Origin: Escherichia coli
GTDB lineage: Bacteria > Pseudomonadota > Gammaproteobacteria > Enterobacterales > Enterobacteriaceae
Length of the DNA: 64,000 bases
Assembly: GCF_046105845.1 (NCBI RefSeq)
Contig: NZ_CP151004.1
Reading direction: 5' to 3' (one strand)
Shown piece by piece: positions 31,383-33,092 of this stretch. A program made the translations under genes and the position numbers. A model generated the notes under the pieces. The model searched no databases and was not told the origin of the DNA. It saw nothing but the letters and a program-made list of their open reading frames with translations. Position 1 is the first letter of the stretch. Every line of letters starts with the position of its first letter.

Positions 31383-31698
31383 TACCCCTGTGTTTTTTGT
31401 ACAATCAAAGATTTTGTGGGCACTAAGAAAATTAGTGTATATAAACCATGCTTAAATTGCATAAATATTGAATATGGCATCGATGGCTCACTATCCTTAC
31501 GTTATCAAAAAAATGTGTATACCGTGATTATGCTTGATAATTATTTGACCGCAGTGTTGTATAGTCTACTGCTTTCTAATCTACAAGCATCATGGCATAA
31601 ATCCAGTATCTAGAACTAATAAGATTAACAATTGGAGATCACAAGTGATTGGCTTAGTTCACTGAGCCATGCATTGTTACCCTCTGATTAAAGATTAA

Positions 31699-32856
31699 TT
31701 ACTCAGCCTTCCCATCAAGCCAGTCCGCCCACCACTGCATCATTTCTCTGCGCTTATCGAGATACTGAGCATGGTTGTAAATCCCGCGCACAGATCCGCC
31801 GTTGGCATGTGCCAGTTGCACTTCAATAGCATCAGCAGGCCATTCGTGCTCGTTCATAATCGTGCTGAATTCATGCCTGAATCCGTGACCGCTTTCCAGA
31901 CCTTCATAGCCGATTTGTTTGATCACAAGCAATACCGCGTTCTCGCAGATTGGCTTCTTCTTATCGTTACGCCCGGAAAAAACAAACTCTGATACTGGTT
32001 TGGTGATGGAGCTTAGCGTAGTGAGAAGTTCAACCACCTGGTCTGACATCGGGACCACATGAATTTTGCGTCCCTTCATCACATTGGCGTCGATAGTGAT
32101 AATCCTGTTTTCAAAATCGACGTTCTTCCATTGCATGGAACGAAGCTCTTTTGTTCTGAGGGCTGTGTAGCGTAAAACCTTGGTGGCAATGAGCGATACG
32201 ATACTTCCTGAAAATGTTGCCAGTGCTTTGTTGAATGCCGGGATCTGGTCTGCAGGAAGAAACGGGAAGTTCTTCTTGCGGTATCCCTTCATGGCGTCAG
32301 CAAGGTCAGGTGCCGGGTTATATTTAGCCCTACCAGTGACAATAGCGTAACGGAAAACCTCGCCGCATCTTCTGCGGGCTTTGTTGGCTCGCTCCATTGC
32401 ACCGCGATCTTCAAATCTGCGGATTACTTCCAGCAGTTGCATCGGCTCAATATCCAGAATCTCAAGACCGCCGATGATGGGTAAAATGTCGTCATCAAAC
32501 ATTTTGGCAAGTTCAGTTGCATAGCCTACTGACCAGACTTGCTTCTTGTGCTCGTACCATTCCTTGTAAATCGCACTAAAGGAATTGTTGTTAGACGAGT
32601 CCTTTTTCGCCTTTACCGGATCGATGCCAACCGAGATGTCTTTCCTCGCAGTCCATGCTTTATCCCTTGCCTCCTGCAAAGTCATAAGCGGATATTTTCC
32701 TACGGTCAGTATTTTTTCCTTACCGTCAATCTTGTAGCGAAGCTGCCATACCTTTTTCCCGGATACAGGGACATAAAGGTACAGGCCATTACCATCGAGA
32801 AGGCGGTATGGTTTTTCTTTCGGCTTTGCTGCTTCAATCTGCTTAACGGTGAGCAT
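31699..32856 (-). CDS. intS: Tyrosine integrase (IntS-type, argW-specific)
   Basis: 385 aa from MLTVKQIEAAKPKEKPYRLLDGNGLYLYV..., recalled as close to K-12 IntS; ORF-track start 32892 adds 12 codons. Confidence 0.92.
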   Translation of the reverse strand: MLTVKQIEAAKPKEKPYRLLDGNGLYLYVPVSGKKVWQLRYKIDGKEKILTVGKYPLMTLQEARDKAWTARKDISVGIDPVKAKKDSSNNNSFSAIYKEWYEHKKQVWSVGYATELAKMFDDDILPIIGGLEILDIEPMQLLEVIRRFEDRGAMERANKARRRCGEVFRYAIVTGRAKYNPAPDLADAMKGYRKKNFPFLPADQIPAFNKALATFSGSIVSLIATKVLRYTALRTKELRSMQWKNVDFENRIITIDANVMKGRKIHVVPMSDQVVELLTTLSSITKPVSEFVFSGRNDKKKPICENAVLLVIKQIGYEGLESGHGFRHEFSTIMNEHEWPADAIEVQLAHANGGSVRGIYNHAQYLDKRREMMQWWADWLDGKAE

Positions 32857-33017
32857 GGGTAAAAATCCGGTGGGTAAAATTATTTTATCCACTTTTTACC
32901 CGTCATGGAGTGCGGCTGTCAACGATCTGAAGCGAACCATGACGAACTGTGAGTTTCCGGGAGGCTTGATATTCTGGGGATTTTGCGGACTGGTACGGAT
33001 GGGAGCGAACTGATAAA

Positions 33018-33092
33018 TGGTGTCCCCTGCAGGAATCGAACCTGCAATTAGCCCTTAGGAGGGGCTCGTTATATCCATTTAACTAAGAGGAC
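33018..33092 (-). tRNA. argW: tRNA-Arg (anticodon CCU), prophage attachment site
   Basis: 75-nt minus-strand sequence GTCCTCTTAGTTAAATGGATATAACGAGCCCCTCCTAAGGGCTAATTGCAGGTTCGATTCCTGCAGGGGACACCA folds as a cloverleaf; 160 bp from integrase start. Confidence 0.9.

Follow-up and report, generated by a model that had tools for sequence, protein, structure and literature searches.

The analysed window is a stretch of 64,000 nucleotides of Escherichia coli DNA (contig NZ_CP151004.1) in which ARAGORN locates a single tRNA gene, argW, next to the start of a phage integrase gene. This tRNA is identical to K-12 argW at each of its nucleotides (75/75), and a Rfam scan of positions 30000-33300 returned nothing besides it. 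Past the tRNA the sequence is E. coli chromosome, with yfdC as the first gene, then mlaA, fadL and fadIJ, at up to 98.6% identity. On the other side of argW, a spacer of 161 nt (32857-33017) separates it from int. The spacer has the same length in K-12 (2466384-2466544), in good agreement with the K-12-like distance of about 160 bp between the tRNA-Arg 3' end and the integrase start that had been given in the original prediction.

The integrase contains the three domains Arm-DNA-bind_3, Phage_int_M and Phage_integrase (arm-binding, central and catalytic, respectively) and shares 378 of its 385 residues (98%) with K-12 IntS. At the DNA level the gene is 95-97% identical to int of the phages Sf6, HK620, CUS-3 and Kapi1. 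It is transcribed away from attL, and an AT-rich gap, a membrane acyltransferase gene and a tailspike gene lie directly inside it, as had been claimed from the sequence. The label oac given to the acyltransferase at that time did not hold, since the similarity of the product to Sf6 Oac is limited to 30% identity over 107 residues only (BLASTP, E = 1e-5), with no match at the DNA level. Given that full-length similarity is lacking, orthology with Sf6 Oac was rejected. The features of the region are collected in Table 1.

Table 1. Features of the argW-int junction and of the adjoining cargo genes (window coordinates).
Feature	Position	Strand	Evidence or remark
Tailspike, 779 aa, convergent with the acyltransferase gene	27805-30144	+	PF09008 head-binding domain, E = 4e-65
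OacB-like membrane acyltransferase, AT3 family, 388 aa (probable start)	30204-31370	-	PF01757 (Acyl_transf_3), E = 1.6e-28
int-acyltransferase spacer, candidate promoter location	31371-31698	-	composition
int, IntS-type tyrosine integrase, 385 aa from ATG 32856	31699-32856	-	Pfam domains
P' arm of attL, phage-derived, overlapping the int promoter	32857-33016	-	near-identical to K-12 attL and to Sf6/HK620 attP
Four IntS arm-type GGGTAAAA-like sites	32894-32901, 32883-32890; inverted 32872-32879, 32857-32864
Predicted PintS -10, TAAAAA	32893-32898
Predicted PintS -35, TTGACA	32917-32922
TorI-type pentamers, block 2	32943-32947, 32933-32937, 32923-32927		motif match by sequence
TorI-type pentamers, block 1	33006-33010, 32986-32990		motif match by sequence
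attL core, 16 nt	33017-33032		CTGCAGGGGACACCAT in tRNA orientation, ATGGTGTCCCCTGCAG on + strand
argW, tRNA-Arg(CCU), anticodon CCT	33018-33092	-	ARAGORN; Rfam tRNA, 63.4 bits
yfdC, first chromosomal gene past argW	33168-34100	-	PF01226; named yfdC in E. coli matches

A closer inspection of the junction placed the attL core at the very end of the tRNA gene, the first 15 nt of CTGCAGGGGACACCAT being the 3'-terminal 15 nt of argW. The published core of KplE1 consists of the same 16 nt (PMC2951348). The attP cores annotated in GenBank for Sf6 (18099-18114) and HK620 (1368-1383) coincide with this interval, and the annotated attL core of CUS-3 also falls on it. When the window was compared with phage genomes by megablast, the homology of Sf6, HK620, IME10, HK633 and other phages extended from the int stop codon to position 33032 and ended there. 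On the basis of these annotated cores and of the common end of homology, attP is placed on the tRNA side, upstream of int. This is where the original prediction had located the attachment site, and the comparison with the Sf6 attP region that it proposed thus brings the Sf6 core onto the core of the window. The range suggested for the core (33018-33040) was close, although the actual limits are 33017 and 33032. The core is present once in the window, with no second copy when up to 3 mismatches were allowed, and none of the direct-repeat families in the window involves the tRNA.

The arm of attL between the core and int is identical to that of K-12 attL from the -35 hexamer to the int ATG and nearly identical in the remainder. 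It contains five pentamers of the TorI form G(T/A/C)(T/C)CG at conserved positions, arranged in two blocks, together with the four arm-type sites, both motif definitions having been taken from PMC2951348. In K-12, PintS was mapped by primer extension and is repressed by IntS and TorI via sites beside the -10 and -35 hexamers (PMC2951348). Judging from the near-identity of this arm to that of K-12, we infer that the integrase of this prophage would be produced at a low level under autoregulation by IntS, with TorI also acting over its promoter, and that excision would be governed by TorI produced at the opposite prophage end.

The window begins in the early-left region of the phage (ral, N, cI). 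Since it starts inside this region and holds a single core, attR must lie farther upstream. Ten contigs encoding the 66-aa Ral protein of the window were examined, nine of which, carrying other lambdoid prophages inserted elsewhere, were left out. The remaining one, the Logan contig SRR28309099_56 (L021; 116.5 kb), matches window positions 1-10220 at 100% identity and positions 23805-34144 with 0 mismatches, and it encodes the very 779-aa tailspike of the window at the offset expected. The far end was consequently read not from the window but from this public contig, which agrees with it base for base over some 20.5 kb. A copy of the att core, CTGCAGGGGACACCAg, was located there at 14846-14861, equivalent to window positions -4640 to -4625, with 15 of the 16 bases matching. 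The same site, read as CTGCAGGGGACACCAG, had 0 matches in 100 shuffles. The single mismatch is the last base, which is G instead of T. The empty attB carries G as well, so that the identity between attP and attB in this host amounts to 15 bp.

Two GGGTAAAAT arm-type sites precede the attR copy, and a 66-aa ORF (14572-14772 of the same contig) that is 100% identical to the K-12 TorI excisionase ends 73 nt before the core. The csc sucrose genes come after the core. From attR to attL, the prophage measures about 37.7 kb on this contig. A repeat of the core at the other prophage end, outside the window, had been foreseen, and a search upstream for the 3' segment of the tRNA had been set beforehand as its test; the repeat is present on the identical contig, some 4.6 kb upstream of base 1.

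For the empty site, a query composed of the yfdC-argW flank and the csc-side flank of attR was run against 5,426 complete E. coli genomes. This joined query matched 1,414 of the 5,426 with a coverage of 80% or more. Among the top matches listed the query aligned as a single piece, the best of them with 634/634 identity. The order of genes at the empty site is yfdC, argW, a DUF4942 fragment, cscB, cscK and cscA. In a seven-way alignment, attL corresponds to the argW side of attB joined to the int-side arm of the Sf6/HK620 attP, and attR to the xis-side arm of attP joined to the csc side of attB. The module is also present in the NCBI loci L004-L013, with at least 47 differences from the window in 5.6 kb; these served for context only.

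The core, the arms, the junctions, the attR copy and the empty site could all be read directly at the sequence level. The six features of an IntS-TorI module that can be tested in this way, namely the integrase, the core, the attR copy, the orientation of int and its promoter, the position of the excisionase gene and the precise insertion, were all found. We therefore regard the region, with very high probability, as the attL of a P22-like prophage (Lederbergvirus), apparently complete and about 37.7 kb long, that is inserted in the 3' end of argW by means of an IntS/TorI module; none of the observations speaks against this structure. In this module the attP core is situated upstream of int and separates it from the gene of the excisionase (TorI, HkaC or gp18). 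Integration places int beside argW and transcribed away from it, with its promoter embedded in the arm of attL, and the excisionase gene ends up at the far end, beside attR. The genes downstream of int remain its neighbours, in this case the acyltransferase and the tailspike genes. The boundaries of the prophage are thereby fixed at both sides, and the tRNA stays intact after insertion.

In lambda, P22 and the gtr-carrying Shigella phages, attP is placed beside the 3' end of int, and int and xis are adjacent. If the prophage followed this arrangement, its attP would be found downstream of int, before the conversion gene, and the present adjacency of the two genes would be the product of a rearranged or non-canonical insertion. 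The placement of attP at the 3' end of int in those phages (described for lambda in PMC2951348) argues for this possibility, and so does the 316-bp gap downstream of int, non-coding and AT-rich like many att regions. The gap, however, contains neither a repeat of any tRNA segment nor a match to any phage att region, while the core and both arms are found on the other side of int, where they rebuild attP and attB exactly, and the junction at the empty site is precise at the tRNA 3' end. The attR copy, the empty site and the seven-way alignment refute this arrangement, to which we assign practically no probability. A second alternative is a decayed and immobile remnant, in which only int and argW would survive by unrelated phage genes with no functional attR or excisionase. 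It is favoured by the example of CPS-53 of K-12, a defective element whose argW-intS junction is the same. We nevertheless consider a remnant quite unlikely. On the identical contig the element extends over 37.7 kb between attR and attL. Immunity and replication genes (cI, cro, cII, O and P) were read and matched, the remainder of the window is filled by ORFs with the size of late genes, and related loci have called ejection genes of the P22 type. In addition, torI and int are intact, all the binding-site motifs are present, and even CPS-53 still excises (PMC2951348).

The gap between the acyltransferase gene and int is 316 bp long, or 328 bp with the revised acyltransferase start (see below), and its GC content is 33.5%, compared to 47-50% in the flanking DNA. 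No megablast match to the gap sequence was obtained in phage genomes or in the 5,426 E. coli genomes, in which the matches start at the int stop codon. The sole promoter-like site on the minus strand of the gap runs from 31568 to 31540 (TAGACT-17-AATAAT, 9/12) and is not above chance, 10 such sites being counted in positions 30000-33200 against 8.8 expected from shuffles. The scan for promoters and terminators also missed the known PintS, whose -10 hexamer TAAAAA fails the rule that demands a T at position 6, and it therefore weighs little in either direction. When the gap was aligned with the sequences preceding homologous acyltransferase genes, conservation was confined to the Shine-Dalgarno/ATG region, with no common promoter block.

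The original prediction had placed the acyltransferase promoter, as probable, in this AT-rich gap, and the proposal is plausible but unsupported. A promoter of its own, from which the gene would probably be expressed in the lysogen, is reasonable because Sf6 has an annotated putative promoter in this place and because PintS is repressed in lysogens. The gene might instead depend on read-through from the integrase promoter in attL, with no promoter in the gap. Both genes are co-oriented and no terminator-like hairpin was detected on the minus strand within the gap (in a scan that performs at chance level), which, together with the absence of an above-chance promoter-like site, would allow this. 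Against it, the tight repression of K-12 PintS by IntS (PMC2951348) would make read-through a poor means of expressing a conversion gene in the lysogen, and the promoter annotated in the equivalent gap of Sf6 is a putative oac promoter. Furthermore, homologues of the acyltransferase occur in other prophages without int upstream, and the GC contents of the gap (33.5%) and of the acyltransferase gene (31.7%) are distinct from that of int (47.9%). Read-through thus appears unlikely, and the low GC content shared by the gap and the acyltransferase gene, unlike that of int, suggests that both arrived jointly as one cassette.

The full ORF of the acyltransferase spans 30204-31382 (392 aa). A better-supported start is the ATG at 31370, which is preceded by a GGAG Shine-Dalgarno sequence 7 nt upstream; this sequence and the ATG form a block that is kept in the homologues. 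At least 99 collection blocks of E. coli assemblies contain the exact 388-aa product, and the product look-up returned no record of the 392-aa form. The spacing of the Shine-Dalgarno sequence, the conserved block and the recorded 388-aa product together indicate that ATG 31370 is probably the start. A tract of the kind involved in CUS-3 neuO phase variation was rejected for this gene, as the tandem-repeat search yielded only a weak 11-nt repeat of 2.3 copies at 31332-31358.

Among characterised proteins, the acyltransferase is closest to OacB of Sf101 (40% identity over 95% of the length), the 3/4-O-acetylase of rhamnose III in the S. flexneri O-antigen, whose function was demonstrated by NMR (PMC4159516). 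The oacB gene has the same position beside the tailspike gene in an Sf6-like genome. The four motifs described for OacB, DGxRGxLAxxVxxHH, FFxITG[YF]LFxxK, WxLxYEWxFY and YSxYLxHG (PMC4159516), are all present, here as DGLRGFLALMVFLHH, FFFMITGFLFFGK, WSLVYEWFFY and YSMYLLHG. Homology and position point to a putative lysogenic-conversion O-acetyltransferase that would acetylate the host O-antigen bound by the adjacent tailspike. With an identity of only 40%, the substrate and position specificity of OacB is not transferable to this protein. Sf101 differs from the present prophage in its integrase and in its integration site, sbcB.

The gene order at this attachment end had been described as unusual, and it is so with respect to lambda and P22; for this group of phages, however, it is the published arrangement. 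The order argW, attL, int, conversion gene, and at the other end xis and attR, was published as a distinct organisation of the recombination module (PMC2951348, PMC3509656), and the arrangement is shared by KplE1, HK620, Sf6, CUS-3 and Kapi1 (PMC2951348, PMC3509656, PMC8787464). KplE1 (CPS-53) of K-12 presents the order argW-attL-intS-gtrABS and, at its far end, torI-attR, with an identical tRNA and core, a spacer of equal length (161 nt), IntS at 98% and TorI at 100% identity, the TorI and arm-type motifs, and O-antigen-modification genes directly downstream of int. It differs in being a 10.2-kb defective remnant with gtrABS as cargo and dsdC at its flank, whereas the prophage described here is a P22-like element of 37.7 kb that carries the acyltransferase, is flanked by csc and has a 15/16 attR core.

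In Sf6 (AF547987), genes 14-18 follow the same succession, with the tailspike gene on the plus strand, the acetylase gene on the minus strand, a non-coding gap, int on the minus strand, the attP core and a xis homologue (gene 18). The DNA of int and attP is 96% identical to that of the window, but the acyltransferase is non-orthologous, and the receptor-binding part of the tailspike and the gap sequence are unrelated. HK620, CUS-3 and Kapi1, P22-like phages that also integrate at argW, share the int/attP/xis module and the core, and CUS-3 has in addition an acetyltransferase locus (neuO) between tailspike and int. Kapi1 is 97.6% identical over the matched 65% of window positions 1-12000, which comprise immunity, replication and late-regulation genes. 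The cargo between tailspike and int differs among these phages: HK620, whose int begins at base 50, has none, CUS-3 carries neuO and Kapi1 carries hyp24.

The gene order is thus real but already known, and the prophage is a further member of this group with a different tailspike and acyltransferase cargo. It is thereby assigned to a type of recombination module for which the regulation was already dissected in K-12. The annotation is corrected to an OacB-like acyltransferase instead of oac, with its start probably at ATG 31370, in a gene order that constitutes a textbook case of Panis et al. The importance of these results beyond correct annotation is small, and the tailspike/acyltransferase cargo is the sole mildly new biology at this locus.

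The tailspike of this cargo combines a P22-type head-binding N-terminal domain with a divergent C-terminal, receptor-binding part. Residues 1-116 match the structure of the Sf6 tailspike (7sg7, E = 2e-64), and the matches to PDB sequences, from the Sf6 and P22 tailspikes, are confined to residues 1-127; the PDB sequence search found no relative of the C-terminal part. This part of the tailspike, the acyltransferase gene and the gap are all low in GC (32-40%), and megablast of the first two against phage genomes and the 5,426 complete E. coli genomes gave no match. The nearest homologues of the acyltransferase (65-67% identity) are encoded by genes convergent with those of adjoining tailspikes in prophages that are not P22-like. 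In one such prophage, the tailspike paired with the 67%-identical acyltransferase is 55% identical to residues 134-779 of the tailspike of the window. This recurrence of the homologous pair in a non-P22-like prophage suggests that tailspike and acyltransferase travel as a cassette. We tentatively propose, as a possibility that falls a little short of probable, that the receptor-binding part and the acyltransferase (approximately 28200-31698, 32-40% GC) form a mobile cassette that would recognise and then modify the same O-antigen, moving between unrelated tail architectures and specifying an uncharacterised O-antigen acetylation. The hosts of such a cassette may include P22-like podoviruses in E. 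coli and, in Enterobacter and metagenomes, prophages whose tail genes comprise NlpC/P60 and DUF1833.

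The convergent pair formed by the receptor-binding part of the tailspike and the acyltransferase was found again in prophages that are not P22-like, from Enterobacter hormaechei and from metagenomes, whose tail genes include NlpC/P60 and DUF1833. Identity to the pair of the window is 55% for the tailspike part and 65–67% for the acyltransferase. This recurrence suggests that the two genes constitute a mobile recognise-and-modify cassette. A perfect LexA-box-like palindrome (CTGTATATTTATACAG) lies 5' of the homologous acyltransferase in two of these loci, L027 and L028, whereas no counterpart was found in the int-acyltransferase gap of the window. 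In L027 a divergent Peptidase_S24 gene adjoins the palindrome, and in L028 a threonyl-tRNA synthetase gene takes this side.

Features of the window and of related loci
Feature	Locus	Position
Tailspike receptor-binding part and acyltransferase	Window	28200-31698
Homologous convergent pair	L027	6001-9412
Homologous convergent pair	L028	4003-7441
Homologous convergent pair	L029	595-4033
LexA-box-like palindrome	L027	~5850-5880
LexA-box-like palindrome	L028	~3880-3900
Chromosomal flank, yfdC/argW side	Window	33093-64000
Chromosomal flank with cscB, cscK, cscA, cscR	L021	14862-20201
Element preceding the module	L006 (GCA_020147505.1)	1-8353
Element preceding the module	L009 (GCA_021228495.1)	1-8352
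P2-type capsid gene fragment	L006/L009 element	
Toprim primase, 889 aa	L006/L009 element	
Integrase of a different type, 334 aa	L006/L009 element	
Ogr/Delta	L006/L009 element	
hok	L006/L009 element	
Variant att core	L012	~8339-8353
Variant att core	L009	~8339-8352
Direct repeat	Window	36012-36345

The prophage is flanked by yfdC/argW on one side and, as seen in the attR-carrying contig L021, by the csc sucrose-utilisation genes on the other, in place of the dsdC that adjoins the argW element of K-12. That the argW-dsd region forms a hypervariable island is already known (cited in PMC8787464). In two E. coli assemblies (L006 and L009) the int-acyltransferase-tailspike module is preceded not by argW/yfdC but by another element, whose final 20 nt are those of the 3' end of argW (GATTCCTGCAGGGGACACCA); argW here appears to hold the P22-like prophage in tandem with a satellite-like element.

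The att core is not constant among related lysogens. In locus L012 the discriminator base of the tRNA is changed from A to G (GGGGACGCCA), and a 1-nt deletion shortens the G run in L009. These variants could represent tRNA 3' ends donated by the phage or assembly errors.

Between mlaA and fadL, a hypothetical gene of low GC content (36%; 35328-36575, 415 aa) contains a 139-nt direct repeat, whose two copies share 79% identity at a spacing of 195 nt.
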